Origin: Candidatus Magasanikbacteria bacterium RIFOXYC2_FULL_42_28
GTDB lineage: Bacteria; Patescibacteriota; Patescibacteriia; Magasanikbacterales; GWA2-37-8
NCBI GenBank assembly: GCA_001784435.1
Contig: MFQZ01000005.1
Span: 25,015 to 89,014 of the forward strand
Length of the DNA: 64,000 bases
Reading direction: 5' to 3'
This document shows positions 32,155 to 55,905 of the stretch, one piece after another. The position numbers were made by a program, and so were the translations under genes. The notes beneath the pieces are model-generated. The model was not told where the DNA came from, did no database searches, and saw only the letters and a list, made by a program, of their open reading frames with translations. The stretch's first letter is position 1, and each line of letters begins with the position of its first letter.

Positions 32155-35100
32155 ATGCTTAATAATACCCTCAACCCCGCCCAACTCGAAGCCATAAAAC
32201 ACACCACCGGCCCACTTTTGATTGTCGCCGGGGCTGGTACTGGCAAAACTACCGTGATTGCGGAAAAAATCGCTTATCTTGTTAATACCCAAAAAATTCC
32301 AGCCAAAAATATTTTAGCTGTTACTTTTACCGAAAAAGCCACTGCCGAGATGTCCGACCGCGTGAGCGCCTTATTGCCGGACGGGGGATTGGACGCGACG
32401 GTTTGCACCTTTCATTCTTTGGGACGTAGAATTTTGGAAACGCATGGATTGGAAGTGGGGTTGCCGAATAATTTTAAAGTGTTAAACGATATTGAAGCGT
32501 GGTTGCTTGTACGCCAAAATTTAGAAAGATTTAATTTGGATTATTATCGACCGCTGGGTAATCCGGCAAAATTTATTCACGCGCTTTTAAAACATTTTGG
32601 CCGGTGTAAAGATGAGTTGATTACACCGGAGAAATATTTAGCGCATGCGGAAAATTTACAGTTGGATGGAGATTCCTCGTCGCTCCCGCTCGCTCGGAAT
32701 GACAATGACGGTGAAAGCGATGCGCTTATCCAAAAACGCACAGCCGAACTATCCTCGGCTTACCACTTGTATAATCAAATCTTATTAGAAAACGACTGCT
32801 TGGATTTTTCCGATTTAATTTTCTATACAGTTAAACTTTTACGCGAACGGCCAAATATTTTAAAAATTTATCAAAACATTTGGCCGAATATTTTGGTAGA
32901 TGAATTTCAAGACACCAACTGGGCACAATATGAATTAATAAAATTATTGGCCAAAGGGCGCGAAGATACGGTTGGCCTAACGGTGGTAGGTGATGATGAC
33001 CAAAGTATTTATAAATTCCGCGGTGCTAGCGTCGCCAATATTTTACAATTTTCAACTGACTTTCCAAAATCCAAACAAGTGGTGCTGACCGAAAATTACC
33101 GCTCTGGCCAAACAATTTTGGACTATGCGCATAATTTTATTACCTTAAATAATCCGGACCGACTGGAAGCAAAATTAGGGTTAGATAAAAAATTAATTTC
33201 CGCTACTAAAAAATTTGCCACCGTAGAATTTAGCAATCCAACGAGTGCTAGTGCTGAGGGTGAGGAGATTGCCAAAAATATTCTGGCACTAAAAAAGAAA
33301 AACGATTTGGGGTGGTCGGACTTCGCCGTTTTATGTCGCACCCACCAGATCGTTGACCAAATTTTGCCATCTTTAACCAGTCGCGGTATCCCAACGGTAA
33401 GCGCGGGCGCATCCGGTTATTTACGCACTGGCGCGGCCTTAAACTGCTTGGCGGCTTTTAAATTGGCGGATAATTATCACGAATCACCGGCCGTCTATCG
33501 CTTATTAAATTCCGTGATTTACGATTTACCTTATGAAGACGCGTCTAAATTGGCATTGTTTGTTAAAAGAAAATCAGTATCACTTTACCAAGCGGTTAAA
33601 GCCGGAGTAAATGGAGAAATAAAATTAAGTACCGCTGGACAAATTTGCACTGCTAAATTTTTGGCCGATACTGCTAAATTATCCGTGGACGCTAAAACCG
33701 AACCGGCAATTAAGGTGTTGTATAATTTCTTAGAAAATTCCGGTTATTTAAAAAAGTTGGCGGACGCGCCGGAAAAAAATTATCGCGATATTATGGCTTT
33801 GCAAGCGCTGTTTGATTATTTGGAAAAATTCCAAAGTGATAATCCGGATACAGGCGTCGGCGCGTGGCTTAAATATTATGAATACGCGCTGGAGGCCGGG
33901 GAAACAGGGGAGGCCGAAGCCGATAGCGCCGATGGCGTGCCAGTTTTGACTATCCACAGCGCCAAGGGACTGGAATTTGAATATGTCTTTATTCCGTCAC
34001 TCGTGGATTTGCGTTTTCCAGCGGTGAATCGTTCGGAAGCGATTGAATTGCCGAGCGAATTAGTTAATGAAAAAGTTTTGCCAGAAGACGACGCGCATTT
34101 GGAAGAAGAGCGACGTTTGTTTTATGTGGCACTAACACGCGCCAAAAGCGGGGTATTTTTATCCGGCGCCAAGGACTACGGCGGGGCGCGCGAGAAAAAA
34201 TTATCACGATTTGTTTCCGAATTGGAAAAAACGAATAAGGTAAAATTGAACGACCACTCCCTCACCCCCTCCTCCGAGAGGCGGGGGAAGGCGACGATTT
34301 CCCCTCCTGCCCGAGGAGGGGACGAAGGGGCGGTAAGAGCAATTACCACCCCTCAAACATTTTCCTTTTCTCAGATCTCAACCTACCAATCCTGCCCCTG
34401 GCAATATCGCTATAAATTCATTTTGCATATTCCCACTTTGGGCAAAGGCGTGTTTAGTTTTGGCCACACCTTGCATCTTACCTTACAAAAATTTTACGAA
34501 CGACTAATCGCGTTAAATTCCGCGCGCCAAGGCGAACTGTTCGACGCGCCTCACATTTCTCCCCCTGCCCGAGGGGGAGACGAAGAGGGGGTGGGAGCAA
34601 TCACAGTTGCCAGTTTAGAAGAACTACTGGAATTATATCGCGCTAACTGGCAAGATGATTGGTTTTATAGTGCGGAAAATAAAGCCCGCTACCGTGCCGA
34701 AGGGGAAACAATCTTAAAAAACTTTTACGCAATAAACACAAAAGCCGGCTGGACAATACCGCTGGGTTTAGAAACCGGTTTTCGATTTAAAGTGGCTGGC
34801 GCTGATTTCAAAGGTCAAATTGATCGCATTGACCGCCAAGCCGATGGAAAAATCCGCTTAATTGACTACAAAACCGGCCGACCAAAAACTACGCTTACTT
34901 TTAACGATAAATTACAGTTATTAGTTTACCAATGGGCCGCCACGAGTATTTCGGCGTTAGCTCAAATGGGGGAAATCGGCACACTTTCGTATTTTTATTT
35001 AAATGATGGCACCGAGATGGATTTTATCGGCGCAGAAAAAGATTTAGCCAAAACCGCTGCGACTGTGGAAGAAATAATTAAAAAAATTCAAGCGCGCGAT

Positions 35101-35172
35101 TTTACATCCACGCCCGATAAAGAAACCTGCGCGAATTGTGATTTTCGCGATATTTGTGAATTTAGAAAATGA
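32155..35172 (+). CDS. UvrD/PcrA-family SF1 helicase fused to a C-terminal PD-(D/E)XK Cas4/AddB-like nuclease with Fe-S cysteines. Carries three in-frame repeat insertions
   Basis: Helicase motifs I AGAGTGKTT, II LVDEFQDTN and VI ALTRAK. C-terminal CPWQY...IDRID...IDYKTG...CANCDFRDIC (C-x(n)-CxxC-x5-C). Inserts at 32664..32712 (family A half) plus 34262..34350 and 34554..34603 (GC-rich family). Confidence 0.85.
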   Translation: MLNNTLNPAQLEAIKHTTGPLLIVAGAGTGKTTVIAEKIAYLVNTQKIPAKNILAVTFTEKATAEMSDRVSALLPDGGLDATVCTFHSLGRRILETHGLEVGLPNNFKVLNDIEAWLLVRQNLERFNLDYYRPLGNPAKFIHALLKHFGRCKDELITPEKYLAHAENLQLDGDSSSLPLARNDNDGESDALIQKRTAELSSAYHLYNQILLENDCLDFSDLIFYTVKLLRERPNILKIYQNIWPNILVDEFQDTNWAQYELIKLLAKGREDTVGLTVVGDDDQSIYKFRGASVANILQFSTDFPKSKQVVLTENYRSGQTILDYAHNFITLNNPDRLEAKLGLDKKLISATKKFATVEFSNPTSASAEGEEIAKNILALKKKNDLGWSDFAVLCRTHQIVDQILPSLTSRGIPTVSAGASGYLRTGAALNCLAAFKLADNYHESPAVYRLLNSVIYDLPYEDASKLALFVKRKSVSLYQAVKAGVNGEIKLSTAGQICTAKFLADTAKLSVDAKTEPAIKVLYNFLENSGYLKKLADAPEKNYRDIMALQALFDYLEKFQSDNPDTGVGAWLKYYEYALEAGETGEAEADSADGVPVLTIHSAKGLEFEYVFIPSLVDLRFPAVNRSEAIELPSELVNEKVLPEDDAHLEEERRLFYVALTRAKSGVFLSGAKDYGGAREKKLSRFVSELEKTNKVKLNDHSLTPSSERRGKATISPPARGGDEGAVRAITTPQTFSFSQISTYQSCPWQYRYKFILHIPTLGKGVFSFGHTLHLTLQKFYERLIALNSARQGELFDAPHISPPARGGDEEGVGAITVASLEELLELYRANWQDDWFYSAENKARYRAEGETILKNFYAINTKAGWTIPLGLETGFRFKVAGADFKGQIDRIDRQADGKIRLIDYKTGRPKTTLTFNDKLQLLVYQWAATSISALAQMGEIGTLSYFYLNDGTEMDFIGAEKDLAKTAATVEEIIKKIQARDFTSTPDKETCANCDFRDICEFRK
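32664..32712. repeat. Family A half-element inside the helicase gene, in-frame (encodes DSSSLPLARNDNDG)
   Basis: ATGGAGATTCCTCGTCGCTCCCGCTCGCTCGGAATGACAATGACG is nearly identical to the right half of the rsmI copy. Confidence 0.8.
34262..34350. repeat. GC-rich palindromic element (family GC), about 1.5 tandem copies, in-frame in the helicase (encodes TPSSERRGKATISPPARGGDEGAVRAIT)
   Basis: CCCCTCCTGCCCGAGGAGGGG hairpin. About 70% GC in an AT-rich gene. Homolog at 34554 and in grpE (55546). Confidence 0.75.
34554..34603. repeat. GC-rich palindromic element (family GC) copy 2, in-frame in the helicase (encodes ISPPARGGDEEGVGAIT)
   Basis: ATTTCTCCCCCTGCCCGAGGGGGAGACGAAGAGGGGGTGGGAGCAATCAC. Confidence 0.75.
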
Positions 35173-35173
35173 T

Positions 35174-35464
35174 ATGCAAACCCTTGGCTCACTCTTAAAC
35201 CGTCCCAATCAAAACCGTCCGCTTTTAAAACAGGTGCGTGCGGCGATGGTGGTGGAAGCGGCCAATGAATTTATCAGTAAGACATATGGCCAAGGCGCGG
35301 AAAATCAAGCGCGCGCTCTTTACTTAAAAAATGGAATTTTAACCATCGCTTGTTTAAGTTCGGTGTTGGCCCAAGAAATGCGCTTACGAGAAAAGGAATT
35401 ATTGCGAGCGGTTAGTGCTAAATTTAGTCCAGATACCATAAAAAAAGTCCGTTATTTGGCTTAA
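35174..35464 (+). CDS. DUF721-family protein (DciA-like, putative replicative-helicase loader)
   Basis: MQTLGSLL...VRAAMVVEAANEFI...GILTIACLSSVLAQEMRLREKELL matches the DUF721 pattern. Start moved to Met13 to avoid overlap with the helicase gene. Confidence 0.55.
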   Translation: MQTLGSLLNRPNQNRPLLKQVRAAMVVEAANEFISKTYGQGAENQARALYLKNGILTIACLSSVLAQEMRLREKELLRAVSAKFSPDTIKKVRYLA

Positions 35465-35526
35465 AATCAACAGTTGCCAAACTCCAAAAAATAGAGTAAA
35501 ATACCGTCATAATACTCATTTCAAAT

Positions 35527-35913
35527 ATGACTTTAAAACAGTACTTAATTTTGATGTCCGTCGCCACGGCTGTTTGTTGGCTCGCGTGGCTGTTTGTAAT
35601 TTTTAATCTTGACCCAACTACCGCCGGCGCTTTGGGGTTATCATTTTTTTATTTTACTTCATTTTTTGCTCTGATTGGAACTTTCGCCACACTGGGATTT
35701 TGGATGCGAGAATTATTTTCTAAAACCGACGAGGTAGAATTCCGAATTGTTAAAAAAACTTTTCGACAGGGGATAGTGCTGTCGGGATTTATTATACTCA
35801 TGTTATTTTTACAACAAAAAGAAATGTTAAATTGGTGGACCGGAACAATTATTTTATTAATGTTATTTATTACCGAAGGTCTGGTGTTTCAATTTAAATC
35901 GCACGCTCAATAA
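35527..35913 (+). CDS. Hypothetical membrane protein (4 TM)
   Basis: ORF with hydrophobic helices only. Confidence 0.4.
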   Translation: MTLKQYLILMSVATAVCWLAWLFVIFNLDPTTAGALGLSFFYFTSFFALIGTFATLGFWMRELFSKTDEVEFRIVKKTFRQGIVLSGFIILMLFLQQKEMLNWWTGTIILLMLFITEGLVFQFKSHAQ

Positions 35914-35917
35914 CAAA

Positions 35918-35990
35918 CTGTCACCCTGAGCTTGTTTCAGGATCTCCTGGATAACACGGGATGCTGAAATATATTCAGCATGACGATTAA
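35918..35990. repeat. Possible diverged family A-like element (GTCACCCTGAGC ... GCATGACGA)
   Basis: Termini resemble GTCATTCCGAGC/…GAATGACA. Internal AATATATTCAGCAT palindrome. Weak. Confidence 0.3.
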
Positions 35991-35996
35991 TTAATT

Positions 35997-37037
35997 ATGT
36001 TTGACAATATTTTAAACAGATTTCGCAAAGGGCTGGGAATTGATCTTGGCACGGCTAACACGCTAATTTACGTCAAAGGCCACGGTATCGTAATTAACGA
36101 ACCGTCGGTGGTGGCGGTCAATACTAAAACCGAACAAATTTTAGCAGTTGGCAATGAAGCGCGTGAAATGTTGGGTAAAACTCCGCCCCACATCCTAACC
36201 ACTCGTCCACTGTCCGGTGGCATTATTTCGGACTTTGAGGTGGCGGAAAAAATGTTACGCTATTTTTTTGATAAAATTAACGAAAGCGAACGACAGAAAT
36301 TCGCCCGCCCGACGGTTATTATCGGCGCGCCACTGGAAATTACCGAGGTGGAACGCAAGGCCATTTCGGACGCGGTAATCAGCGCCGGCGCGAAAAATGT
36401 TTGGGTAGTAGAAGAACCAATGGCAGCGGCGATTGGCGCCCGCATGCCGATTCGTGAACCGATTGGTAATATTATCGTCGAAATTGGCGGTGGTACTACC
36501 GAAATCGCGGTAATATCATTGAGCGGAATTGTTAAATGGCGATCAATTAAAATCGCGGGCGATGAACTAAATCGCAATATCATGCAATACGCGCGCGAGC
36601 ATTTTAATTTACTTTTAGGTGAAAAACAAGCCGAAGACATTAAAATTCAAATTGGTTCAGCCGTGGAAATTCCCCAAAGCGCTCAATACCCCATGCGTGG
36701 CCGCGACTTGGTAACCGGACTGCCCAAAGAAATTATGATTAGTGATAGCGAAGTGCGTGAATCAATGGTAAAATCATTACGCACAATTGTGGAAAATATT
36801 AAAGCCACCTTAGAAATATCACCACCGGAGTTAGTGGCCGACATTCACGAACGTGGCCTGCTTTTATCCGGCGGAGGAGCGCTACTTAAAGGACTGGACC
36901 AATTGATAGCGCGCGCGACGGAAATTCCCGTGCGTGTCGCGGACGATCCTCTAACTAGCGTAGTACGTGGGACCGGTATTTTACTGGATGAGCCGGAACT
37001 TTTATCCGAAGTAACCGTACTCACGACCAAACACTAA
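35997..37037 (+). CDS. mreB: Rod shape-determining protein MreB
   Basis: Actin-fold motifs GIDLGTANTLIYV and IGGGTTEIAV. Confidence 0.9.
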   Translation: MFDNILNRFRKGLGIDLGTANTLIYVKGHGIVINEPSVVAVNTKTEQILAVGNEAREMLGKTPPHILTTRPLSGGIISDFEVAEKMLRYFFDKINESERQKFARPTVIIGAPLEITEVERKAISDAVISAGAKNVWVVEEPMAAAIGARMPIREPIGNIIVEIGGGTTEIAVISLSGIVKWRSIKIAGDELNRNIMQYAREHFNLLLGEKQAEDIKIQIGSAVEIPQSAQYPMRGRDLVTGLPKEIMISDSEVRESMVKSLRTIVENIKATLEISPPELVADIHERGLLLSGGGALLKGLDQLIARATEIPVRVADDPLTSVVRGTGILLDEPELLSEVTVLTTKH

Positions 37038-37041
37038 ATCT

Positions 37042-37830
37042 ATGGCCAATAATCGTCGCTCCAATCGAAATATATTATCTTTCGCCTTTTTGGCGATAAT
37101 TTTTTTGGCTCATATTTTTGGCTTGTTAAAACCGATGGAATCAAAAATTCGCCTGCTATTGTCGCCACTGTTGGCTAAAATATACGGATCCACTAATCCT
37201 GAACTTTTTAAAATCAGCAAACAAGAACTTTACGGGCAGTACCAACAGTGCTTGGCTGTTCAAAATGAAACCGCGTATTTTCGCGCCCAAACAGAAATGT
37301 TAAAAATTGAAAATCAAAATTTGCGCCTTGCTTTAAAATTTTCCGAACGTGCGCCTTATAAATTAATAACCGCGCAAGTAATCGGACGCAGTATTGATTT
37401 GTCCGAACAAACGCTCTTAATTAACGTTGGACAAAATTCGGGTCTGACAGTAAACCAACCGGTAATTGTCGGCGAGGGGCAGTTAGTGGGAAAAATTACT
37501 AATTTAGACGCCAATTCCGCTTGGGTGCGCCTCCTCTCGGACAGTCGCAGTAAGATAGCGGCCCTAATTTTAAATGATGAAAAAAGCGGTGGCGTCGTTG
37601 AGGGTGGTTATGGATTAAGCATAAAAATGGAATTTATACCGCGCAATGAAACAGTTAAAATCGGTGACCAAGTGATTACCTCCGGACTGGAATCAAATGT
37701 ACCGAAAGGATTATTAATCGGAACAGTGGCGGCGCTTGAAAATGAGGCCTACAAACCATTTCAACAGGCGATTATTACCCCAGCCGGGAGTTTGGAAAAA
37801 ATTGATATTGTGAGTGTAATCATCAATTGA
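37042..37830 (+). CDS. mreC: Rod shape-determining protein MreC
   Basis: N-terminal TM helix, coiled coil and beta-rich C-terminus, directly after mreB. Confidence 0.8.
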   Translation: MANNRRSNRNILSFAFLAIIFLAHIFGLLKPMESKIRLLLSPLLAKIYGSTNPELFKISKQELYGQYQQCLAVQNETAYFRAQTEMLKIENQNLRLALKFSERAPYKLITAQVIGRSIDLSEQTLLINVGQNSGLTVNQPVIVGEGQLVGKITNLDANSAWVRLLSDSRSKIAALILNDEKSGGVVEGGYGLSIKMEFIPRNETVKIGDQVITSGLESNVPKGLLIGTVAALENEAYKPFQQAIITPAGSLEKIDIVSVIIN

Positions 37831-37836
37831 CAACCT

Positions 37837-38382
37837 ATGTCTTGGTATCATAAATTTTTAATATGGATCATCGCCCCCATCATTCTCGCCACTTTACAAA
37901 TTATTTGGCGCTGGTATTGGCCGGAACCGATTAACCACGCGCAAATAATTTTTGCCGGATTAACAATTTGGCTTTTGTACTCACCCACGAAAACTAACCT
38001 TTTTTGGATGATATTTTTGATATACTGGTTGCTTGACTTAGTATCAGCCCTGCCATTTGGCATAAATACCATTAGCGCGTTCTTAAGTTTTTTATTGCTT
38101 TATCGCTTGTCTACTCGAGTGTTTACCGGACACTCAATTTCAACCGCATTTTTATTAACCGCTATCGGCAGTGTCGCTTTTAGAATAATTTATCTTTTAA
38201 CGGCGCTACTCTGGGGATTTATTGACCTGACACAGATTGTCGGACAAAATAGTTCGCTAATGTCAATTATTTGGGAAATAACACTGACAGCAATCGTGGC
38301 GGTAATTATATTTTTGGCGTCAGTTTTTGGAACACGTCGTTTTAATCCGCGCTATATTTTAGTGGATAATATTAATAAATAA
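37837..38382 (+). CDS. mreD: Probable MreD (polytopic membrane protein following mreC)
   Basis: Five TM helices. Position in mreBCD-mrdA order. Confidence 0.5.
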   Translation: MSWYHKFLIWIIAPIILATLQIIWRWYWPEPINHAQIIFAGLTIWLLYSPTKTNLFWMIFLIYWLLDLVSALPFGINTISAFLSFLLLYRLSTRVFTGHSISTAFLLTAIGSVAFRIIYLLTALLWGFIDLTQIVGQNSSLMSIIWEITLTAIVAVIIFLASVFGTRRFNPRYILVDNINK

Positions 38383-38385
38383 AAT

Positions 38386-40350
38386 ATGGCGGATCTCTGG
38401 CGTAATATTAATGGGACTAGTGATGCTAATTTAACCGGAAAATACCGCCATAAATGGGTGGAGGAAAATTTTTTGCCACCCAATAAAGGCGCTGAAACAA
38501 TTTCAACTGGCACACGAAATTTTTTAGGGCGCGCCTTACCGGAAAGACGACTTAAAATTTTTGCCGGCATAATGATTTTGGGATTTCTAATCGTGATTGC
38601 AAAAACATCGTATTGGCAAATTTTTAACGGCGAAAAATATTTAGCGCTGTCTGAAAATAATCGCATTCGCATCAAACCTATTCCGGCCGAACGGGGCGTG
38701 ATAGTTGACAAATTTGGAAAACAACTTGTTCAAAATGTACCTAATTTTTCTTTAAATATCGTTCCCCAAGATGTGCCCCGCGAAGGGATAAAAAGGCGCG
38801 AAGTGGTAGAAAGCGTCGCTACTACTACCGGTTTATCTTATGAAGAAATCGAGGCCTTACTTTATAAATATCGTTTTCACCGCCTGGAATCAATTACTGT
38901 CAAAGACAATTTAGATTACAGCGCCGCTTTAAAACAATACATTAAAAATGCGGAATTGCCCGGGGTAAATATTGAGAGTGGTACTAGGCGCAACTATGAA
39001 TTCACTAATTTTGATAATCCAAACAAGGCCTTAAGCTTGTCCCATATTTTAGGGTATTTAGGTAAAATAAACGATGCCGAGTTGGAAAAACTAGGGGCGA
39101 ACGGTTATCTAATATCCGATAACATCGGACGCACCGGTTTGGAAAAAATTTATGAAAAAGAACTACGCGGAATTTATGGTAAGAAAAAAATTGAAGTGGA
39201 TGCTTACGGCCGAGAACAAAATATCGTTGCGCAGGAAGCACCCGTTCCCGGAAAAAATCTCTATTTGTCAATTGATTTAGAAGCGCAACAACAATTGGAA
39301 AAATTTATTTCCGCGGGCGCGACTAAAGAACACCCCCGTTTGGCCGCTGTCGCCTTAAATCCCCAAACCGGCGCGATTTTGGCAATGGTATCTTGGCCGG
39401 CGTATGACAACAATAAATTTGCCGGCGGTATTAGTCGCGATGATTACGCCACGTTATCAACTGACCCCGACCAACCGCTGTTTAATCGCGTTATTGCCGG
39501 CTCTTATCCATCGGGCTCTACTATTAAACCGGTAATGGTCGCGGCCGCGCTGGAAGAAGGAGTGATAACCAAAAATACCACCATTATGAGTGTGGGTGGA
39601 ATTTATGTGGGGGACAGATTTTTTAGGGACTGGCGCGTCGGCGGACACGGCGCCACTAACGCGCAGAAAGCGATCGCGCAATCTATTAATAGTTTTTTCT
39701 ACTATATTGGCGGTGGCTATCGCGATTTTGAAGGGCTGGGAGTAGAACGAATAGCGAAATATTTAAAAAAATTTGGACTGGGCGCGATAACCGGAATTGA
39801 TTTAACCGGAGAAGCGCCCGGGCTGGTACCCGATCCAACTTGGAAACAAGCGAATAAAAAGGAACAGTGGTATATTGGCGATACCTACAATCTATCAATT
39901 GGACAAGGTGATTTGCTCGTAACTCCGCTTCAAGTAGCCGTTTGGACAGCGGCCATTGCCAACGGAGGACGAGTGGTGCACCCGCATTTAGGAGAAAAAT
40001 TAGTCGATCCCGCCACCAACACGATAACTACATTAGGAAAAGAACCAACTGATCCGGTAATTTCCGCTCCGTCGGTTAATCTGGCCAAGCAAGGAATGGG
40101 GGAATGTGTAAAAACAGGTAGCTGTCACCTGTTAAGTTATTTGCCTTTTACTGCTGGTGGCAAAACCGGCACCGCTCAGTGGAGCGCGACCAAAAATACT
40201 CACGCCTGGTTTACGGCGTTTGCCCCTTATGAAAACCCGCAGGTGGTAATTACCGTCTTAATGGAGGAGGGCGGGGAGGGTGGCGTGGTGTCAATTCCAA
40301 TCGCGCGTGAATTTTTGGCCTGGTGGGGAAAAAAATATTTGACACAATAA
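38386..40350 (+). CDS. mrdA: Penicillin-binding protein 2 (elongasome transpeptidase)
   Basis: TM anchor, dimerisation domain and transpeptidase motifs SGSTIK (SxxK), SxN-like region and KTGTA. Confidence 0.85.
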   Translation: MADLWRNINGTSDANLTGKYRHKWVEENFLPPNKGAETISTGTRNFLGRALPERRLKIFAGIMILGFLIVIAKTSYWQIFNGEKYLALSENNRIRIKPIPAERGVIVDKFGKQLVQNVPNFSLNIVPQDVPREGIKRREVVESVATTTGLSYEEIEALLYKYRFHRLESITVKDNLDYSAALKQYIKNAELPGVNIESGTRRNYEFTNFDNPNKALSLSHILGYLGKINDAELEKLGANGYLISDNIGRTGLEKIYEKELRGIYGKKKIEVDAYGREQNIVAQEAPVPGKNLYLSIDLEAQQQLEKFISAGATKEHPRLAAVALNPQTGAILAMVSWPAYDNNKFAGGISRDDYATLSTDPDQPLFNRVIAGSYPSGSTIKPVMVAAALEEGVITKNTTIMSVGGIYVGDRFFRDWRVGGHGATNAQKAIAQSINSFFYYIGGGYRDFEGLGVERIAKYLKKFGLGAITGIDLTGEAPGLVPDPTWKQANKKEQWYIGDTYNLSIGQGDLLVTPLQVAVWTAAIANGGRVVHPHLGEKLVDPATNTITTLGKEPTDPVISAPSVNLAKQGMGECVKTGSCHLLSYLPFTAGGKTGTAQWSATKNTHAWFTAFAPYENPQVVITVLMEEGGEGGVVSIPIAREFLAWWGKKYLTQ

Positions 40351-49440: not shown

Positions 49441-49472
49441 TAAACGAAAAAATAATCCGCCTCTTCGGCGGA

Positions 49473-50594
49473 TTAAATTTCACTTTTTAATTCTTCCAAC
49501 TTTTTCCGCGTCTCGCGCGAAATTTTTCTGGGCACGCGGATTTTTATTTTAACATAATGATCACCACGCGTGGTTCGACCTAAATGCGTGATGCCATGAC
49601 CTTTTATTTTTATTAATTGGCCGGATTCAACTCCTTCGGGAATCATTAAATTCACTGATCCGTCCAAGGTATTGACCGCGACTTTGTCACCCAATACGGC
49701 TTGGCTAAAATTTATTTCTAAATCAGTATAAACATCAAAACCCTCGCGATGAAAATTTTTCTGTTGGCGAATATGCGCGCGCACGTACAAATCCCCTGTT
49801 CCACCACCATGAGGAGCGGCTTCGCCATAACCGGTTAAACGAATAGATTCACCTTCGTCTATGCCAGCCGGAATTTTTACATTTATTGTCGAAGATTTTG
49901 CCAAAATTCCATCGCCACCGCAATGTTTGCAGGGCTTGCCGGGTTTTTGGCCACGGCCTTGGCAATTCGGACACGCAGCTACGGTTTGCATCACGCCCAA
50001 AAAAGTTCGCTGTTGTTGGACAACTTGGCCTTGGCCTTTACAAGTGGCACAAGTATCTAATTTACTACCCGGCTCGCTACCAGAACCATTACAAACATCG
50101 CAGGCGCTTTGTTTTCGTAAAGAAATTTCTTTTTCAATTCCAAACGCCGCTTCTTTTAAATCCAATTCAACATCAACTTGTATGTCACGACCACGTGCTT
50201 GCCCACCGCCACGACGAGAACGGCCACCGCCACCAAATCCAAACATATCGCCAAAAATATCACCGGCATCTTGTCCGCCAAAATTAAAAGAAAATCCGCT
50301 GTCGCCCCCGCCTTGACCGCCCCGACGAAACGCATTCATTATATCTTCCCAATTACCACCAGACGCGCCCCAACCACCTTGAGATTCAAAATCAGAACCA
50401 AATTGATCGTATTTGGTTCGTTTATCAGCATCGTTTAAAACTTGAAAGGCCTCGTTTATTTCTTTAAACTTTTTTTCATCACCACCCGGTCGGTCCGGAT
50501 GGTGCGTCATGGCCATTTTTTTAAACGCTTTTTTTATTTCATCGGCCGTGGCATTTTTTTCCAAGCCGAGTATTTTATAGTAATCTTTGGGCAC
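49473..50594 (-). CDS. dnaJ: Molecular chaperone DnaJ
   Basis: J-domain with HPD, Gly-rich linker and four CxxCxGxG repeats. Confidence 0.9.
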
Positions 50595-50629
50595 AAAAAT
50601 AAATCAAAAAACTGTAAAAAAAGTAACTA

Positions 50630-51055
50630 CTAAATGGACAGCTTACTTTCTAAATCACGAACCATATCAAGTGCTTCTTGTTTGTCACTATCTTCTTTCA
50701 GATTAAAACTTTCAAGCGCCAACGGAGTAGTTATTGCGTTATTCACCCAAGCATAAAAACTACCAACCCCATCTTTCATACCATTAACCGTGCTTACTGC
50801 TGTTACCAGAGTGTTCATGTGCACTATTAAAGCTGCGGAATTGCTAAGGTCAGCCGTATCAACCATAACCCTTAATTGGCGAACTACGCTCTTCATTTTT
50901 TGCCACATCAAATACTCTTTCGATGACAACTGATCCGGATCTATATGCGTAATATTTTTATTTTTACCAGCGGCAAAATCTTTCATAGCCTGAATTTCCA
51001 TACGAAAATTAGCCAGCTCCTGTTCGCTAATTTCACGAGGCTCTTGATCTGTCAT
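50630..51055 (-). CDS. Hypothetical protein inserted between dnaK and dnaJ
   Basis: ORF only. Is not GrpE (grpE lies at 55315). Confidence 0.4.
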   Translation of the reverse strand: MTDQEPREISEQELANFRMEIQAMKDFAAGKNKNITHIDPDQLSSKEYLMWQKMKSVVRQLRVMVDTADLSNSAALIVHMNTLVTAVSTVNGMKDGVGSFYAWVNNAITTPLALESFNLKEDSDKQEALDMVRDLESKLSI

Positions 51056-51072
51056 AAAATTATAATTATTTA

Positions 51073-51092
51073 TATCATGATTTAAATCATGA
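51073..51092. promoter_or_regulatory. Perfect 20-bp palindrome ATCATGATTTAAATCATGAT (candidate operator)
   Basis: Exact self-complementary sequence located 18 bp upstream of the 50630..51055 ORF start and just 3' of dnaK. Confidence 0.4.
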
Positions 51093-51113
51093 TATATTTT
51101 ACCACAAATTTAA

Positions 51114-53015
51114 TTATTTCACTACCTCGCCTTCGATTGGTCCATCGTCCTTCTTTGGCTCTTCACCACCTGGTTGCGCGCCCGGCTGACCACCTTGGGG
51201 TGGCTGTTGGGTTTGGTACATTTTCTGACCAACAACTTGCGCGGCCTTAGACAACGCCTCGGACGCTTTTTTAATCGCCTCCACATCATCCTTATCCTTT
51301 ACCTCTTTCACCGCCTTCAAACCCTCTTCCACATTTTTCTTTTCTTCATCGGTAATCGCAATTTTTTTCTCTTCCACTTCTTTCATCATTTTTTCCGAAG
51401 TGTACACCATCGTATCGGCCAAATTGCGGGTCTCAATTAATTCTTGCTTTTTCTTGTCTTCATCCGCATGCGTTTCTGCTTCTTTTTTCATTTTTTCAAT
51501 TTCTTCTTTTGATAATGCGGTTGAAGCAGTAATAGTAATTGACTGCTCTTTGTTAGTGGCTTTATCTTTGGCTTTTACCGATAAAATGCCATTAGCATCA
51601 ATATCAAAACTTACTTCAATTTGAGGCACACCACGCGGAGCTGGTGGAATACCATCTAACATAAATCGACCCAAAGTTTTGTTGTCAGTGGCCATCGGAC
51701 GCTCGCCTTGCAACACGTGAATTTCTACGCCCGGTTGATTATCAGCCGCGGTGGAAAATGTTTGCGTTTTGGAAGTTGGGATCGTGGTGTTGCGTTCAAT
51801 TAATCTGGTCATCACACTGCCCATTGTTTCCAAACCCAAAGACAACGGTGTCACATCTAACAACAAAATATCTTTGACATCGCCCCGCAAAACACCGCCT
51901 TGAACCGCCGCGCCAATCGCGACCACTTCGTCCGGATTCACACTGATGTTTGGTTTTTTATTGAAAAACTTTTCTACGGCCGCGAGTACCATTGGCATGC
52001 GTGTCATCCCGCCGACCATCACGACTTCGTGCAAGTCCCCTACTTTTAATTTGGCGTCATCCAATGCCTTTTGCACCGGACCCATAGTTTTGGCAACTAA
52101 ATCCCCTACTAATTCTTCTAATTTAGAACGGGATAATTTCATTACCAAATGTTTCGGACCATCTACGCCGGAAGTGATAAACGGCTGATTGATTTCGGTT
52201 TCTTGCGAAGTGGATAATTCAATTTTGGCTTTTTCGGCCGCTTCTTTTATCCGTTGTAAGGCCAAATTGTCTTTACCCAAATCAATTCCTTGATCTTTTT
52301 TAAATTCATCCAAAATCCAGCGAATTAAAATTTGGTCAAAATCATCACCGCCCAAATGCGTGTCGCCGTTGGTAGACAAAACCTGAACATTGTCCGGCGC
52401 TACTTCCAAAATGGAAATATCAAAAGTGCCGCCACCCAAATCATACACCGCGATTTTTTGTTCAATTTTTTTATCAAAACCATAAGCCAAAGCCGCCGCC
52501 GTTGGTTCGTTCACAATACGCAAAACATTCAAACCGGCAATCGCGCCCGCGTCTTTGGTGGCTTGGCGCTGGGCATCATCAAAATATGCTGGTACGGTGA
52601 TTACCGCATCAGTAATTTTTTCACCAATACGTTCTTCGGCATCAGCTTTCATCTTTTGCAAAATCATTGCAGAAATTTCTTGCGGGGAATGATCTTTGTC
52701 ACCCATTTTAATTTTTACCCCATCACCGGATTGAACAATTTTGTAAGGCATCAATTTTAAATCACGCTGAACTTCGGCATCGGTAAAACGACGGCCGATA
52801 AGACGTTTGATAGAATACAAAGTGTTTTCCGGATTGGTAACGGCCTGCCGTTTGGCTAATTGCCCAGCCAGTCGTTCGCCGGATTTGTTAATCGCAACCA
52901 TAGATGGCGTGGTGCGCGCGCCTTCTTTATTTTCCAACACCTTGGGCTGGCCACCTTCGATAATGGCCATGCAAGAGTTAGTGGTGCCGAGGTCGATGCC
53001 GAGTACTTTTGACAT
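51114..53015 (-). CDS. dnaK: Molecular chaperone DnaK (Hsp70)
   Basis: IDLGTTNS and DLGGGTFD motifs and the EEVD-less bacterial C-terminus. Confidence 0.95.
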
Positions 53016-53030
53016 ATGTGTTTATGTTAA

Positions 53031-53660
53031 TTAAATATTAATTAAATTATTTTTTTTAGTATTCAAAATTTTATGTTCTGTACGAATACTTAATAAGTTT
53101 AATGATCTATTAGTGCTAATGGAGTCTAACAAAATTAATAAAAATATTGGTAATAAATACAATGGATAAAATATTGAATAAAAACCTATTATAAATAATA
53201 AACCGTCCAAAAATATATAGTGGTAATTAAGTCTGTCTCTATGTGTTTGCAAAATTATATTATTTGATATGTATTCAAATTCATCACAAATAGTAATTTC
53301 ACTTTGTCTAGTTGTAATTATCGCAAATTCTTTATTTTTTACATAATAATTTCTCAATCTAACAAGAGTGCCTGGCCCCAATCGGACTAGAGCATCTAAT
53401 GAAATCACAAAACGCGAAATTTGACTACCAAATGCCGATGCTAATCTTCCAATAGAATAAGATATTGATATATAAAATATAGTGACTAAAAATGGCTGAA
53501 ATGGACTATCTTTAAATAATAAATAAACTAAATTACTAGGTAGCAAATTTAAAAATAACAGAGAAAAAATAATAACATTCCCTATAATAAAATACAAAAC
53601 ATCTATAAAAAAACCATGGGGTTTTAAATAGTTAGCCACATCTTTAATTTCTTGATTCAT
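53031..53660 (-). CDS. Hypothetical membrane protein in extremely AT-rich (~25% GC) segment
   Basis: ORF with five hydrophobic helices. Composition strongly atypical, suggesting recent acquisition. Confidence 0.4.
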   Translation of the reverse strand: MNQEIKDVANYLKPHGFFIDVLYFIIGNVIIFSLLFLNLLPSNLVYLLFKDSPFQPFLVTIFYISISYSIGRLASAFGSQISRFVISLDALVRLGPGTLVRLRNYYVKNKEFAIITTRQSEITICDEFEYISNNIILQTHRDRLNYHYIFLDGLLFIIGFYSIFYPLYLLPIFLLILLDSISTNRSLNLLSIRTEHKILNTKKNNLINI

Positions 53661-53664
53661 AAAA

Positions 53665-53901
53665 TCATTTTTTATTTTTATTCATCCCGAAACTAAAACC
53701 AGTTATTAAAGCAAAGTATGTAAAAAATAACCACCCCCAGTAATCTGTATCGCCCCAATATAAAATATCAGAATTGCGCGATAAACTCTGAAAAACTCCA
53801 GCCCAAATTGCGGATGCCAAGTAAAATCCACCCCATTCTTTCAAGTGGTGTTTGAATACCGCCCAGATGGCAACCAATATATCTATAAAAGTTTTAAACA
53901 T
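53665..53901 (-). CDS. Hypothetical small membrane protein (Trp-rich)
   Basis: Two TM helices. ORF only. Confidence 0.35.
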   Translation of the reverse strand: MFKTFIDILVAIWAVFKHHLKEWGGFYLASAIWAGVFQSLSRNSDILYWGDTDYWGWLFFTYFALITGFSFGMNKNKK

Positions 53902-53927
53902 ATACTAATAAATTTCTCCAATTTAAC

Positions 53928-53975
53928 CACTTTAAGGGATTCCTCGTCGGCGCGAGCCTCGCTCGGAATGACAGT
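53928..53975. repeat. Family A half-element, intergenic (GGGATTCCTCGTCGGCGCGAGCCTCGCTCGGAATGACAGTCG)
   Basis: Right-arm terminus identical to the other copies. Confidence 0.75.
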
Positions 53976-54019
53976 CGCCACCCCCTTAACAAACCTTCTT
54001 TTTCTTGATATACTATATT

Positions 54020-54130
54020 TATCACGATGAGAGGAGGTTCATAAGGTTTCGTCCTTATGTAATTGCCTCTCCAATCGAATTATCATCATAAGAGGACCAC
54101 CAAAGGGTTTTATCCCGCGGGAATGCCTCT
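54020..54130 (+). other. Structured GC-rich hairpin cluster ending in a T-run (candidate small RNA or plus-strand terminator) convergent with queF
   Basis: Nested stems GAGAGG...CCTCTC and CATAAGG-tttcgt-CCTTATG, then AAGAGG...CCCGCGGG...CCTCTT followed by TTTTTTATTTTT. Confidence 0.35.
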
Positions 54131-54133
54131 TTT

Positions 54134-54631
54134 TTATTTTTCTTCTCTTCCATTAACATACGCCCTGATTATACCTGAATCATCCTTGGTAAAATAAGTT
54201 TCATCGTCATCAAATCCTTCGCTGTTTGTCGCTTTATTTCCCATCTTCCACCGCGCGCTAATTGCAATCCCACCGCGCGTATTAAATATCACTTCCACTT
54301 CGCATTTTTTTGGTTTTACAAACTTTACAAAATCATTGCCAATGTCCACGGCCAAATGTTCGTGGAACACGCCCACTTCGCGAAATGTTTCCAGATATAA
54401 TTTCATTGACTTTGATTCTACCACATATTTATTCGGCACATAGGTAATCAAAATTTCGGCGTAATCTGGCTGACCCGTCAAAGGACAACGACAGGTAAAT
54501 TCGGTGCAGTGCAATTCCACTTCCAAATTTTGCCCGGAGTGATTGGGAAAAACTTCGAGCGTCCGTGCCGGTTTGGCACTGCCTTTGCCTAATTGAGTTA
54601 ATTTTTTTAAATCTTCTTTGGTTGTTGGCAT
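54134..54631 (-). CDS. queF: NADPH-dependent 7-cyano-7-deazaguanine (preQ0) reductase QueF, type I
   Basis: Active-site CPLTGQPDYAEILITYVP and ESKSMKLYLETFR motifs. Confidence 0.85.
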   Translation of the reverse strand: MPTTKEDLKKLTQLGKGSAKPARTLEVFPNHSGQNLEVELHCTEFTCRCPLTGQPDYAEILITYVPNKYVVESKSMKLYLETFREVGVFHEHLAVDIGNDFVKFVKPKKCEVEVIFNTRGGIAISARWKMGNKATNSEGFDDDETYFTKDDSGIIRAYVNGREEK

Positions 54632-54634
54632 ATT

Positions 54635-55300
54635 TTAAAGTGCTAACGGATTAAATTTAGTTTCAGTGTCGTAAACATCAACACCTTCTTTTTTCTTTAG
54701 CAAGCTGACAAAATAATAAGTGAACGGCGTGGAGACTGTTTCAAATAAAACTTTAAAAATCCATTGCGTCAAAATCAAACCGCCCAAAACTCCGACCGGC
54801 ATCACGCCCCAAAAAGCCAAACTGATAAAAATCAAAGAATCCAAACCTTCACCCACGACAGTAGAACCAATCGTGCGCGCCCACAAATGTTTACCTTGGG
54901 TTTTAATTTTCATTTTGGATAGCAACATTGAATTGACAAATTGGCCGACTAAATAGGCGCTAAACGAAGCGACGAGTAAGCGCGGAGTAAATCCTAAAAT
55001 TTGCTCAAAGGCGGTCTGATTAGCGAAAAACGGCGCGGACGGAATTTTAATACTGATATAAATGGCGACGACCGCGAGTAAATTACAGGCAAAACCGGTC
55101 CAAATGGCGCGCCGCGCGGCCGCGTAGCCATACACTTCGGTTAAAATATCACCAATTATATAGGTAATGGGGAATAAAATTACGGCCACCGGTAAAAAAT
55201 AACTGCCGAACGCGCCGATTTTAACGGCGATGATGTTGGAAATAATTAGACAGGTAACAAAGAGCGCGGAAATTAACTGATAAAATTTTGAATTGGACAT
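54635..55300 (-). CDS. yhhQ: Queuosine-precursor transporter (YhhQ/DUF165 family)
   Basis: Six TM helices. N-terminal LISALFVTCLIISNIIAVKI...ITYIIGDILTEVYGY matches the YhhQ family. Sits directly upstream of queF. Confidence 0.8.
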   Translation of the reverse strand: MSNSKFYQLISALFVTCLIISNIIAVKIGAFGSYFLPVAVILFPITYIIGDILTEVYGYAAARRAIWTGFACNLLAVVAIYISIKIPSAPFFANQTAFEQILGFTPRLLVASFSAYLVGQFVNSMLLSKMKIKTQGKHLWARTIGSTVVGEGLDSLIFISLAFWGVMPVGVLGGLILTQWIFKVLFETVSTPFTYYFVSLLKKKEGVDVYDTETKFNPLAL

Positions 55301-55314
55301 AGATTATTAATAAA

Positions 55315-55905
55315 TTATTTAGTAATAATTACTCTAGCGACTTTCAATACTTTGCCGCCGATTATATAGCCACCATCTACTTCTCTTAAAATTTCACCAT
55401 GTTCTTTGTCCTCAATTTCTTCATCACCCACGGCTTCATGTTTAGTCGGATCAAATTTTTCACCGACTGTTTTTATTTCTTCCACACCGTGCGCGGATAA
55501 AACATCCCCAAATTGTTTTTTGATATATTCAATTCCTTGCGCCCAACTCTCCCACCCCCTCTTTATCTCCCCCTCGGGCAGTGGGAGAGAGCCACTGACC
55601 GCGAACGCTTTTTTAAAATTATCGTAAACCGGAATAAACTCTTCCAAAATTTGCGCTTCGCTCATTCGCACCCATTCACCGCGACGCTTTTCCGTTTCAG
55701 TTTGTAAATTTTTGTAATCAGCCAAAGCGCGTTGCCAACCGAATTTATATTCGTCGCGCTCTTTTTCTAATCCTTCGCAATTTTGGCATTTTTTATGAAA
55801 AAAAGATTTTTTGATTGGCTCTGGTTCGGCCACAGCTTCGTCTTGAACTATATCAATTTGTTCTGCTTGTTCTTCATCTTTTTCGATTTTTGGTTCGTCA
55901 GACAT
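55315..55905 (-). CDS. grpE: Nucleotide exchange factor GrpE, with an in-frame GC-rich element insertion
   Basis: C-terminal GrpE beta domain (HEAVGDEEIEDKEHGEILREVDGGYIIGGKVLKVARV). Insert PLPEGEIKRGWES is encoded by 55546..55595. Confidence 0.85.
   Translation of the reverse strand: MSDEPKIEKDEEQAEQIDIVQDEAVAEPEPIKKSFFHKKCQNCEGLEKERDEYKFGWQRALADYKNLQTETEKRRGEWVRMSEAQILEEFIPVYDNFKKAFAVSGSLPLPEGEIKRGWESWAQGIEYIKKQFGDVLSAHGVEEIKTVGEKFDPTKHEAVGDEEIEDKEHGEILREVDGGYIIGGKVLKVARVIITK
55546..55595. repeat. GC-rich palindromic element (family GC) inside grpE, in-frame but read in a different frame than in the helicase
   Basis: Reverse complement GGCTCTCTCCCACTGCCCGAGGGGGAGATAAAGAGGGGGTGGGAGAG matches helicase copy 2 (CTGCCCGAGGGGGAGACGAAGAGGGGGTGGGAGC). 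Confidence 0.8.

Follow-up and report, generated by a model that had tools for sequence, protein, structure and literature searches.

A short GC-rich repeat, probably of the intrastrand triplex kind, inside a helicase-nuclease gene and grpE of a Magasanikbacteria genome

Three copies of a short GC-rich repeat are found inside two genes of a 64-kb stretch of DNA from a Magasanikbacteria genome. These copies probably belong to a widespread repeat family of the intrastrand triplex (BoxC/PIT/TMECO) kind, which would spread at the DNA level and be translated as passenger loops. The repeat is not private to this genome; its family crosses phyla and has a kind of structure that is already on record. 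It is an intragenic variant, with a different sequence, of the known BoxC/PIT kind of repeat.

Copies of the repeat in the window

The window, which is the whole 64-kb stretch analysed, comes from a tiny groundwater bacterium. A covariance model trained exclusively on copies from other genomes was run on it. The results are summarized in Table 1. The model detects three significant copies, c1, c2 and c3, and no other significant match in the 64 kb, so that the copy density is low, with three units and one half-unit. The first-pass annotation had reported copies in the helicase and grpE genes that are read in different frames. These copies are present, they are translated as claimed to ISPPARGGDEGAVRAIT and ISPPARGGDEEGVGAIT in the helicase-nuclease and to PLPEGEIKRGWES in GrpE, and the frames of the helicase copies and the GrpE copy do differ. 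The 36-nt core matches positions 34562-34597 (+) without mismatches and positions 55549-55584 (-) with one mismatch. When the window is searched for repeats, 34558-34597 and 55549-55588 are 93% identical over 40 nt, and 34297-34346 and 34555-34604 are 82% identical over 50 nt. What had been counted as about 1.5 copies at 34262-34350 is instead one doublet, composed of the inverted half-unit c0 and the forward unit c1. Strand-by-strand reading indicates that c0 is without a proper third strand. The tail-outward layout of this doublet is also seen in loci L013, L041 and L134 of other genomes. The element is alien in composition to its background, as had been noticed, with a GC content of 0.61-0.65 versus 0.37-0.47 for the window.

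Chance similarity of low-complexity sequences, or an assembly artefact, has next to no probability as an explanation of these copies. Runs of G and C only are low in complexity, and some pattern matches without the tail in very GC-rich genomes are probably due to chance, but the 36-nt core is not found in any of 100 shuffles, and the model built from other genomes gives E-values of 1e-12 to 1e-8 for the window copies, in agreement with the earlier judgement that a chance match is unlikely. An assembly artefact is excluded, because the independent ENA, JGI and Logan assemblies have the identical sequence. Both explanations are refuted by these results.

Table 1. Repeat units and host genes in the window (Y, C-rich strand; R, first G-rich strand)
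Feature	Position	Strand	Parts	Covariance-model match	Basis
c0, inverted degenerate half-unit, left half of doublet	34253..34294	-	minus-strand reading: Y CCCCCGCCT 34287-34279; loop CTCGG; R AGGAGGGGG 34273-34265; then TGAGGGAG	34251-34292 (-), 8.8 bits, E 1.7	covariance match
c1, forward unit, right half of doublet	34297..34339	+	Y TCCCCTCCT 34300-34308; loop GCCCG 34309-34313; R AGGAGGGGA 34314-34322; linker CGA; third strand AGGGGCGGT 34326-34334, 8/9 triads valid; degenerate tail AAGAG	34295-34345 (+), 39.4 bits, E 9.5e-9	covariance model, triad reading
c2, intact singlet unit	34555..34597	+	Y TCTCCCCCT 34558-34566; loop GCCCG 34567-34571; R AGGGGGAGA 34572-34580; linker CGA 34581-34583; third strand AGAGGGGGT 34584-34592, 9/9 triads valid; GGGAG 34593-34597	34553-34603 (+), 53.5 bits, E 1.4e-12	covariance model, pair and triad reading
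c3, intact singlet unit	55549..55588	-	Y TCTCCCACT 55588-55580 (one A mismatch); loop GCCCG 55579-55575; R AGGGGGAGA 55574-55566; linker TAA 55565-55563; third strand AGAGGGGGT 55562-55554, 9/9 triads by direct reading; GGGAG 55553-55549	55543-55593 (-), 41.0 bits, E 3.4e-9	covariance model, 93% identity to c2
UvrD-type helicase fused to PD-(D/E)XK (AddB/Cas4-like) nuclease, 1005 aa	32155..35172	+			ORF, Pfam
grpE, 196 aa	55315..55905	-			ORF/translation, Pfam GrpE

Architecture of the unit

The unit consists of a 9-nt C-rich strand, a 5-nt loop and a 9-nt G-rich strand, followed after a linker by another G-rich strand of 9 nt, the mirror of the first, and by GGGAG. The linker is at least 3 nt long; it is 3 nt in the window and up to about 30 nt elsewhere, often with a small hairpin of its own. 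Units are found as singlets or inverted doublets, and one doublet (L134) is perfect. The 5' flank is conserved merely as YT, with T at -1 in 34 of 43 cases. Among the matches listed, the core and the GGGAG tail hardly vary between distant phyla, and the tail is present in 105 of the 129 hairpin matches listed, though the search pattern did not demand it.

The self-pairing of CCCCTCC with GGAGGGG that had been noticed earlier is a real hairpin, but it represents just two of three co-varying strands. In the family alignment, 100% of the hairpin cells are paired and two positions show C-G to T-A double changes; none of 500 shuffles gives a hairpin as good, and every slid register is worse. Nine of nine Watson-Crick pairs are formed in c1 and c2, and eight of nine in c3. 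The three strands co-vary exactly as an antiparallel purine-motif triplex demands (G·G-C, A·A-T and T·A-T). Four subtypes are present among the matches listed, each of which obeys this code: CCCCTCC/GGAGGGG/GGGG(T or A)GG, CTCCCCC/GGGGGAG/GAGGGGG, CCCCCCC/GGGGGGG/GGGGGGG and CTCCTCC/GGAGGAG/GAGGTGG, given as strand/strand/third strand. Eight to nine consecutive valid triads are in register in 93 of the 104 distinct units among these matches, while the eight shifted registers give at most six, mostly three to four.

An intrastrand triplex motif of this class (ITxF) is defined by a pyrimidine-rich 5' block that forms Watson-Crick pairs with a purine-rich block after it, over 6-15 nt and with at most one mismatch, by a third 3' block antiparallel to the purine block, and by two loops of 1-6 nt each (PMC4666352). 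The loops of the window copies, 5 nt and 3 nt, are inside this limit and, judged from their sequences, c1-c3 would be assigned to the class II purine motif. The second loop is 12-32 nt long in many copies from other genomes, and those copies are therefore outside the definition. The folding energies of the window copies as single strands are merely 1.5-2.6 sd better than those of shuffles.

It is very unlikely that the element functions as an mRNA hairpin with an effect on how host transcripts are translated, paused on or degraded. The sense orientation of all three window copies relative to their host genes, the compensatory changes in the stem, and the GNRA- or UUCG-like loops that often close the variable inserts are consistent with such a role, but in other CPR genomes among the matches listed, antisense copies within ORFs are no rarer than sense ones, and the covariation of the third strand is that of the purine motif, which reportedly does not form in RNA (PMC4666352). 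No family in Rfam matches the element.

Sites of the copies in the host proteins

The helicase-nuclease is called as one gene in public assemblies and contains the Pfam domains UvrD-helicase (6-304), UvrD_C (309-672) and PDDEXK_1 (735-1002). The c0-c1 doublet corresponds to approximately aa 700-729, which are part of the linker that joins UvrD_C to the nuclease domain. This linker is variable in the alignment of helicase orthologues; in the 77% sister species it is just 5 aa shorter, versus the approximately 30 aa of the doublet. The c2 copy is read as ISPPARGGDEEGVG, aa 801-814 of the protein, and these residues lie in a variable loop within the nuclease domain. Orthologues that are at most 59% identical are approximately 9 aa shorter at this site, and in the 77% sister species the copy there is decayed.

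The grpE gene is located in an hrcA-grpE-...-dnaK-dnaJ neighbourhood, and its product has the PDB homologues 4ANI and 1DKG. The c3 copy encodes LPLPEGEIKRGWE (L107-E119). In the AlphaFold2 model, residues 103-114 form a loop between helices 83-102 and 115-138, in which pLDDT drops to 60-67. The idea that the copies coincide with linkers is borne out at the GrpE helix-helix loop, the helicase-nuclease linker and the variable nuclease loop. The element DNA is 88-98% identical among GrpE orthologues, while the flanking codons are 60-78% identical, and the synonymous positions of the element are kept more strongly than the flanking codons. The GrpE orthologues with the element are scattered over at least five clades, and the same site is also occupied by a different subtype or by decayed copies (P0006 and P0009). 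The end of the element is always exactly 3 nt ahead of a conserved Trp codon. This constant spacing calls for a preferred site, unless an ancient copy has stayed unusually constant.

The repeat had been regarded as a tolerated coding insertion. It is tolerated in coding sequences, but the case for insertion is not clean: c1-c3 show no target-site duplication, and none of the GrpE and helicase relatives compared provides a clean empty site. Likewise, most orthologues are without the element, as had been anticipated, but their sites are not cleanly empty. In relatives without the element, the site is occupied by other sequence of almost equal length; the GrpE relatives have 18 nt there, versus 48 nt in the window. 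Replacement or decay of older copies fits these data as well as fresh insertion does.

Distribution in other genomes

A public genome collection was scanned with the hairpin pattern, and at least 119 stretches were obtained. The matches listed include Magasanik-, Andersen-, Buchanan-, Kerfeld-, Uhr-, Doudna- and Saccharibacteria and Cerribacteria and, outside CPR, Burkholderiales, Gammaproteobacteria, Acidobacteria and a Bacteroides. In many classes of Patescibacteria (CPR), the unit is located inside housekeeping genes (PheT, LeuRS, PolA, PGM, EngA and GrpE). Among the matches listed, Pfam confirms PheT as a host in three genomes, and likewise LeuRS, PolA, AcrB, PGM, a beta-CASP RNase and an RlmI-like methyltransferase. 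In GC-rich proteobacteria the unit forms intergenic clusters, one of which, a gammaproteobacterial one (L019), is located just past a stop codon.

Approximately 13 sense and 15 antisense copies are found in long ORFs among the matches listed, and five of the six reading frames are used, in both orientations. Since the unit is read in five frames inside many housekeeping genes, it acts as a DNA-level passenger sequence that becomes protein loops. This agrees with the first-pass annotation, which had proposed spread at the DNA level with tolerance in coding sequences, and not a conserved protein module. Flexible Pro/Gly-rich loops selected as protein modules, by convergence or domain shuffling, would explain why the peptides are located in loops or linkers; moreover, the sense frame SPCPRG... 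is never seen among the matches listed and SPPARGG is over-represented, suggesting that the translated product is under some selection. However, five frames and both strands give unrelated peptides, conservation is stronger at synonymous positions than in flanking codons, and the unit is intergenic in proteobacteria. Selected protein modules are largely refuted by this many-frame use and are highly improbable.

No transposase or other recurring protein family is detected near the copies in the 119 listed loci of up to 8 kb. The two inverted copies of one locus (L027) flank ORFs for a calcineurin-type phosphoesterase-like and an FMN-dependent dehydrogenase-like protein, which look ordinary as judged from translations only. 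A MITE has terminal inverted repeats and a target-site duplication; the doublets have inverted ends, and no such duplication is seen at c1-c3.

The repeat might alternatively be a DNA signal useful to the host, such as a hotspot of recombination, a site where replication or repair pauses, a tag for DNA uptake or a site for nucleoid proteins, that is kept by selection even inside genes. This is unlikely: the density in the window is low, copies decay freely (c0 and c1 in the window, the c2 orthologue in L151, and the GrpE copies P0006 and P0009), the element is absent from most orthologues, and one sequence occurs in very different phyla, whereas uptake or Chi-like tags are species-specific. 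The near-invariance of the core and GGGAG among the matches listed, the conservation of the element beyond that of its flanking codons and its identical nucleotide position in GrpE of many lineages would be expected of such a signal, and REP and BoxC-type repeats bind host proteins or affect genome stability (PMC4690160, PMC4666352).

Comparison with known repeats

BoxC/PIT-type intrastrand triplex repeats of E. coli and other Proteobacteria were reportedly described by Hoyne et al. in 2000. According to Holder et al. (2015; PMC4666352), class II purine-motif repeats have 9-nt stems, a first loop of 3-6 nt and a 3-nt second loop, either TTA or CCG, and also occur as inverted doublets. A stable triplex is shown in vitro, by CD, NMR and DMS protection, for TMECO only; its triplex was not detected in vivo, and TMECO is 'always intergenic' in E. 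coli (PMC4666352). The present family resembles BoxC/PIT/TMECO in the order of its parts (5' C-rich strand, loop, G-rich strand, short second loop and second G-rich strand), in these stem and loop lengths, with TTA and CCG also among its second loops, and in T or A of the third strand opposite an A-T pair. Both have many near-identical copies without orientation bias, inverted doublets and no known transposase. In contrast, the present unit is TCTCCCCCT-GCCCG-AGGGGGAGA-N3-AGAGGGGGT-GGGAG, whereas TMECO is CCCTCNCCC-N3-6-GGGNGAGGG-N3-GGGNGAGGG. Direct reading shows that c1-c3 do not fit the BoxC/TMECO consensus, and they are not members of that sequence family; blastn of the family consensus against 5,426 complete E. 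coli genomes, with the low-complexity filter on, gives no match. The present family further differs in the GGGAG extension, in a second loop that can reach about 30 nt and contain a hairpin, and in its occurrence in Patescibacteria, Acidobacteria and beta/gammaproteobacterial MAGs. Unlike the intergenic TMECO, all window copies are inside ORFs, and CPR copies are in Pfam-verified genes.

The palindromic elements of Rickettsia (RPEs; Ogata et al. 2000, via PMC10969869) are AT-rich elements of ~100-150 bp that occur as RPE-1 to RPE-10 in Rickettsia only, each family encoding one conserved peptide. Like RPEs, the present repeat is palindromic and in frame in unrelated housekeeping genes, at tolerant protein sites of a small, gene-dense, AT-rich genome; unlike them, its unit is 40 nt (~90 nt for the doublet), GC-rich, read in five frames and cross-phylum. 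The family shares with REP/REPIN/BIME the GC-rich imperfect palindromes that occur as singlets, inverted doublets (c0-c1 and L134) and mosaic intergenic clusters (L019). It has been proposed that non-B structures serve in the recognition of REP single strands, and the hallmark of REP is a palindrome preceded on its 5' side by the tetranucleotide GTAG or GTGG (PMC4690160). Neither tetranucleotide precedes the hairpin in c1-c3, which sets them apart from REP/REPIN; GTGG occurs solely within the 3' third strand of one subtype. Unlike the RAYT-mobilised (TnpA-REP) repeats, CPR copies are intragenic. A genome with REP/REPIN has a gene for RAYT, a Y1 HUH tyrosine transposase, which the repeats typically flank; no adjoining RAYT gene is seen in the 119 listed loci.

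Discussion

The family would multiply and stay uniform at the DNA level, and the repeat may be mobile. When single-stranded, the G-rich strand would fold into a hairpin whose major groove accepts the third strand, and such a triplex may form in the cell. The likeliest candidate agents are a trans-acting enzyme that works on the folded single strand, or gene conversion from copy to copy. Because intergenic space is scant in the gene-dense, AT-rich Patescibacteria, copies would come to lie inside genes, where those that survive would keep the frame, be free of stops and lie in loops at the protein surface or in linkers between domains. The intact ORFs and the bias in frame use suggest that the copies are translated. 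The products would be passenger loops rich in Pro, Gly, Arg and Glu, ISPPARGG... in the case of the helicase-nuclease and LPLPEGE..RGWE in that of GrpE, and these peptides may be neutral.

It is possible, though doubtful, that the repeat is an active cross-phylum element of single-stranded DNA, mobile or gene-converting, whose machinery reads the triple-helical fold and GGGAG and prefers sites such as the GrpE loop. If so, the same new loops would be written repeatedly into essential proteins of Patescibacteria, and the three-way covariation would be evolutionary evidence for the DNA triplex as a selected structure.

Copies of the repeat in the window

The GC-rich sequences that the first-pass annotation had reported from two genes exist at their window positions, and its translations are correct as written. 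The 36-nt core matches the window exactly at 34562-34597 (+) and with one mismatch at 55549-55584 (-), and has no match in 100 shuffles. A repeat search of the window pairs 34558-34597 with 55549-55588 (93% over 40 nt) and 34297-34346 with 34555-34604 (82% over 50 nt). A covariance model of the unit, for which only copies from other genomes were used in training, scores three copies in the 64 kb as significant and no more (53.5, 41.0 and 39.4 bits), besides a weak inverted half-unit at 34251-34292. The DNA, from a Candidatus Magasanikbacteria (Patescibacteria/CPR) population of the Rifle aquifer, is identical in independent assemblies (ENA, JGI and Logan). The probability that the family reflects chance or an artefact is negligible. 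Another candidate unit (11.3 bits, E 0.37) was taken as a chance match or a very decayed copy.

The first helicase site had been described as containing about 1.5 copies. It is actually a doublet, in which the half-unit c0 faces c1 with the tails outward. This layout is shared with six loci of other genomes (L013, L041, L014, L080, L106 and L121), and a perfect doublet is present in L134.

Repeat units, host genes and other repeats of the window
Feature	Position	Strand	Description
Host gene 1	32155-35172	+	UvrD helicase and PD-(D/E)XK nuclease fusion, 1005 aa
Host gene 2	55315-55905	-	GrpE
c0	34253-34294	-	inverted degenerate half-unit
c1	34297-34339	+	CCCCTCC subtype; 1 bad triad; tail degraded
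c2	34558-34597	+	TCTCCCCCT GCCCG AGGGGGAGA CGA AGAGGGGGT GGGAG
c3	55549-55588	-	layout as c2; linker TAA; single C-to-A change in Y
Rejected candidate	8993-9035	-	CTCC-ACTGC-GGAG then GCGGAGGCGGTGGTGGAG
AT-rich palindromic family	2702-2813, 12946-13070, 20837-20950, 22154-22268		~110 nt, AAATTTCCAATTTCCAA...TTGGAAATTGGAAATTT
Third repeat family	2340-2380, 11229-11269, 15372-15420, 17003-17032, 24705-24760, 31993-32069, 53929-53973, 57427-57513		TTGTCATTCCGA...TCGGAATGACAA hairpins
AT-rich inverted repeat pair	17388-17498, 63283-63384		~110 nt, CTAATTAACTAATTCACTAATTTC...
GC-rich inverted repeat	27287-27319, 27495-27527		33-nt arms, 175-nt spacer
Direct repeat	8678-8745, 9362-9429		68 nt
tRNA gene	9535-9606	-	

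Hairpin and third strand

The layout of the unit is 5'-Y(9)-loop(5)-R(9)-linker-H(9)-GGGAG, where Y is the pyrimidine 5' strand, R the complementary purine strand and H a third strand that mirrors R. The GGGAG tail is an invariant part of the unit and is present in 105 of the 129 hairpin matches listed, which were collected with a pattern that made no demand for a tail. In the family alignment, 100% of the hairpin cells are paired, and two positions show double changes from C-G to T-A; none of 500 shuffles pairs as well, and every slid register is worse.

Among the matches listed, the third block covaries with the stem and mirrors it. The third strand is GGGGTGG (58 copies) or GGGGAGG (7) for the CCCCTCC/GGAGGGG subtype, GAGGGGG (15) for CTCCCCC/GGGGGAG, GGGGGGG (6) for CCCCCCC/GGGGGGG and GAGGTGG (4) for CTCCTCC/GGAGGAG. 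The antiparallel purine-motif triplex code (G*G-C, A*A-T, T*A-T) is such a mirror relation, with A or T opposite an A-T pair (PMC4666352). When triads are counted outward from the loop-closing T-A pair, 93 of the 104 distinct units among the matches listed have 8-9 consecutive valid triads, as against 6 or fewer, mostly 3-4, for the same units in eight shifted registers. Ordinary Watson-Crick alternatives fail to account for the third block. A Watson-Crick pairing between tail and 5' arm works in c3 alone, where it is created by the C-to-A change, and the other subtypes do not fit it. Nearest-neighbour folding, which cannot model triplexes, recovers the hairpin alone (-9.6 kcal/mol, z -1.5 to -2.6). 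The four co-varying subtypes provide comparative evidence of constraint on the three-stranded fold itself, beyond the hairpin. We know of no such comparative evidence so far for BoxC of E. coli.

Distribution across genomes

Across GTDB, with one genome taken per species, a degenerate hairpin pattern matched at least 119 stretches. The matches listed span many Patescibacteria classes and also include Burkholderiales, Gammaproteobacteria and Acidobacteria MAGs of high GC content, and one Bacteroides. One gammaproteobacterium has the units in a mosaic cluster immediately 3' of a stop codon. In low-GC genomes, the units among the matches listed lie within long ORFs, about 13 in sense and about 15 in antisense orientation. 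A role of the repeat as an mRNA structure is very improbable: the purine motif and these antisense copies both contradict it. Nine of ten host ORFs checked against Pfam match known families, namely PheT (three genomes, one with two copies), LeuRS, DNA polymerase I, an AcrB-type pump, a beta-CASP RNase, an RlmI-like methyltransferase with two opposed copies, and phosphoglucomutase; the tenth, of 497 aa, has no Pfam match.

A metagenome scan for the c2/c3 subfamily gave 14 loci, mostly encoding ISPPARGGD(K/E)EGVG within ORFs, and the window's own population is absent among them. Among viral contigs, only three have the hairpin. A blastn search of PLSDB plasmids and of E. coli genomes, with the low-complexity filter on, finds no match. 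For the window and 18 loci, no Rfam family reaches the gathering threshold, and a permissive scan of 34150-34700 yields nothing beyond eukaryotic miRNA and lncRNA noise below threshold. Literature searches by sequence string returned no relevant paper carrying the element sequence, and those on CPR plus REP/RAYT returned nothing about it.

Reading frames and translation

Five of the six reading frames are in use across the intragenic copies among the matches listed and the metagenome loci: SPPARGG and LPLPEGE/PLLPEEG in sense, and LPLGQGE, PSSGRRG and PPRAGGE in antisense. The encoded peptides include ISPPARGGDEEGVGAITVASLEELLELYR-type and SLPLPEGEIK-type sequences. A conserved protein module is highly unlikely, being contradicted both by the use of five frames and by synonymous-site conservation. 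SPPARGG is the dominant sense frame in the CPR loci L013-L128 and L137-L150, and the third sense frame (SPCPRG...) is absent among their more than 20 sense-oriented intragenic copies. The translated peptide is evidently filtered by selection. This frame bias shows selection acting on the peptides, and so speaks for translation and against bypass. That the GC-rich segments are spliced out or bypassed during translation was rejected, because the copies are in frame and stop-free, with one frame avoided and another favoured.

Protein sites and history of the copies

A check for coincidence with linkers had been proposed, and the copies do fall in loops or a linker. The GrpE element encodes L107-E119. 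An AlphaFold2 model of this protein (pLDDT 74.9) has helices at 83-102 and 115-138, with a loop between them where pLDDT falls to 60-67, and alignment to 4ANI gives the same variable loop. The c0/c1 doublet corresponds to about aa 700-729, between UvrD_C (309-672) and PDDEXK_1 (735-1002), and c2 to aa 801-814, within a nuclease-domain loop that is rich in gaps.

Element-peptide patterns are found in 8 of the 120 GrpE homologues listed, to which a loop-masked tree adds P0085 (another subtype, PLLPEEG) and the decayed P0006 and P0009 (LPLPERExAEGRREWE). All of these use one site and one frame, and in the loop-masked NJ tree the element-bearing proteins are spread over at least five clades. In all element-bearing lineages among the GrpE orthologues P0001-P0120 and the loci L005, L006, L008 and L010, the element stops precisely one codon short of the invariant Trp-121 codon, which points to a preferred site or else to an ancient copy that has changed unusually little. 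The element DNA is much more alike than its flanks: between the grpE genes of L006 and L010, it is identical at 48 of 49 positions and the flanks at 52 of 86. Relatives without the element hold other sequence at the site, EGKTAD in L130 and mostly an 18-aa HHPxLxADNEEHKQxKN loop; L130 and L131 show replacement-like differences and no precise gap. Many close relatives (including P0002, P0004, P0005, P0006 and P0009) have a NUDIX hydrolase domain N-terminal to GrpE (PF00293 + PF01025, ~300-330 aa); the window GrpE is without it.

Both helicase copies are absent from orthologues of 59% identity or less. In the sister species L151 (77%), the c2 site holds a decayed copy that reads ACTCCCCCTACCCCCTCTTATCAAGAGGGGG, in which the complement of the third strand stands in place of the purine arm, leaving a plain hairpin. 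This change looks like a template-switch (quasi-palindrome) conversion. The doublet site of L151 has no recognisable element, yet the linker is just 5 aa shorter. Thus, the orthologue comparison proposed earlier shows clear presence and absence, but does not recover a clean insertion event: neither an empty site nor a target duplication was found at GrpE (L130, L131) or the helicase (L151), the closest pairs at hand, and sites with and without the element show a replacement-like length balance.

All-against-all clustering of the 2,955 ORFs of the 119 loci listed reveals housekeeping families only and no mobilising enzyme. In L027, the 2.6 kb between two inverted copies contain phosphoesterase-like and FMN-dependent dehydrogenase-like ORFs, as judged from their translations alone. 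The earlier proposal that the repeat spreads at the DNA level and is tolerated in coding sequence, rather than being a protein module, is supported by its presence in many genomes and five frames and by the greater identity of element DNA than of flanks. The repeat is quite probably a DNA-level intrastrand-triplex repeat, which would multiply or be homogenised as DNA; in gene-dense CPR genomes, in-frame copies would persist at permissive protein sites and be translated as passenger loops. A DNA signal useful to the host is an unlikely alternative to this passenger repeat.

Other repeats in the window

The copies of the AT-rich palindromic family are 91-95% alike. The two copies checked lie immediately beyond ORF ends and are thus intergenic, in contrast to the GC-rich repeat; the family is probably the one that the first-pass annotation listed first. 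The third family has variable GC-rich inner stems, and its last member is a perfect local hairpin. The AT-rich inverted repeats are 79-89% complementary and 46 kb apart. The arms of the GC-rich inverted repeat are 82% complementary and lie in the 2-kb bin where the window's GC content peaks; Rfam gives nothing at threshold for it. The direct repeats are 78% identical, 684 nt apart and just upstream of the tRNA gene.

Relation to known repeats

The BoxC/PIT/TMECO repeats of E. coli have a class II purine motif with 9-nt stems, a first loop of 3-6 nt and a second loop of 3 nt (TTA or CCG) (Holder et al. 2015, PMC4666352). They form inverted doublets, have no orientation bias or linked transposase, and are associated with local genome instability; their triplex is stable in vitro and undetected in vivo (PMC4666352). 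The present repeat has the same architecture, but differs from TMECO in sequence and in location, because TMECO is 'always intergenic' in E. coli (PMC4666352), whereas the CPR copies are intragenic. Like Rickettsia palindromic elements (PMC10969869), the present copies lie in frame within genes and, as their frames suggest, are translated. The unit does not fit the definition of REP, which has 5' GTAG or GTGG ahead of the palindrome (PMC4690160).

The repeat is an intragenic, cross-phylum form of a known repeat kind, and is new as such. Two separately described phenomena, intrastrand-triplex repeats (BoxC/PIT) and palindromic repeats translated inside genes, meet in it, and BoxC-type repeats are thereby linked to the origin of protein loops. 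To our knowledge, neither the function of intrastrand-triplex repeats nor their mode of spread has been established since the 1990s. Orthologous CPR genes with filled, decayed or remodelled sites are natural experiments on the arrival, homogenisation and decay of such a repeat. The element segments make lineage-specific insertions in CPR proteins look more extensive than they are, and alignments or gene trees that include them can be misled. The repeat would also be a source of new surface loops in proteins as essential as GrpE, Pol I and the aminoacyl-tRNA synthetases.
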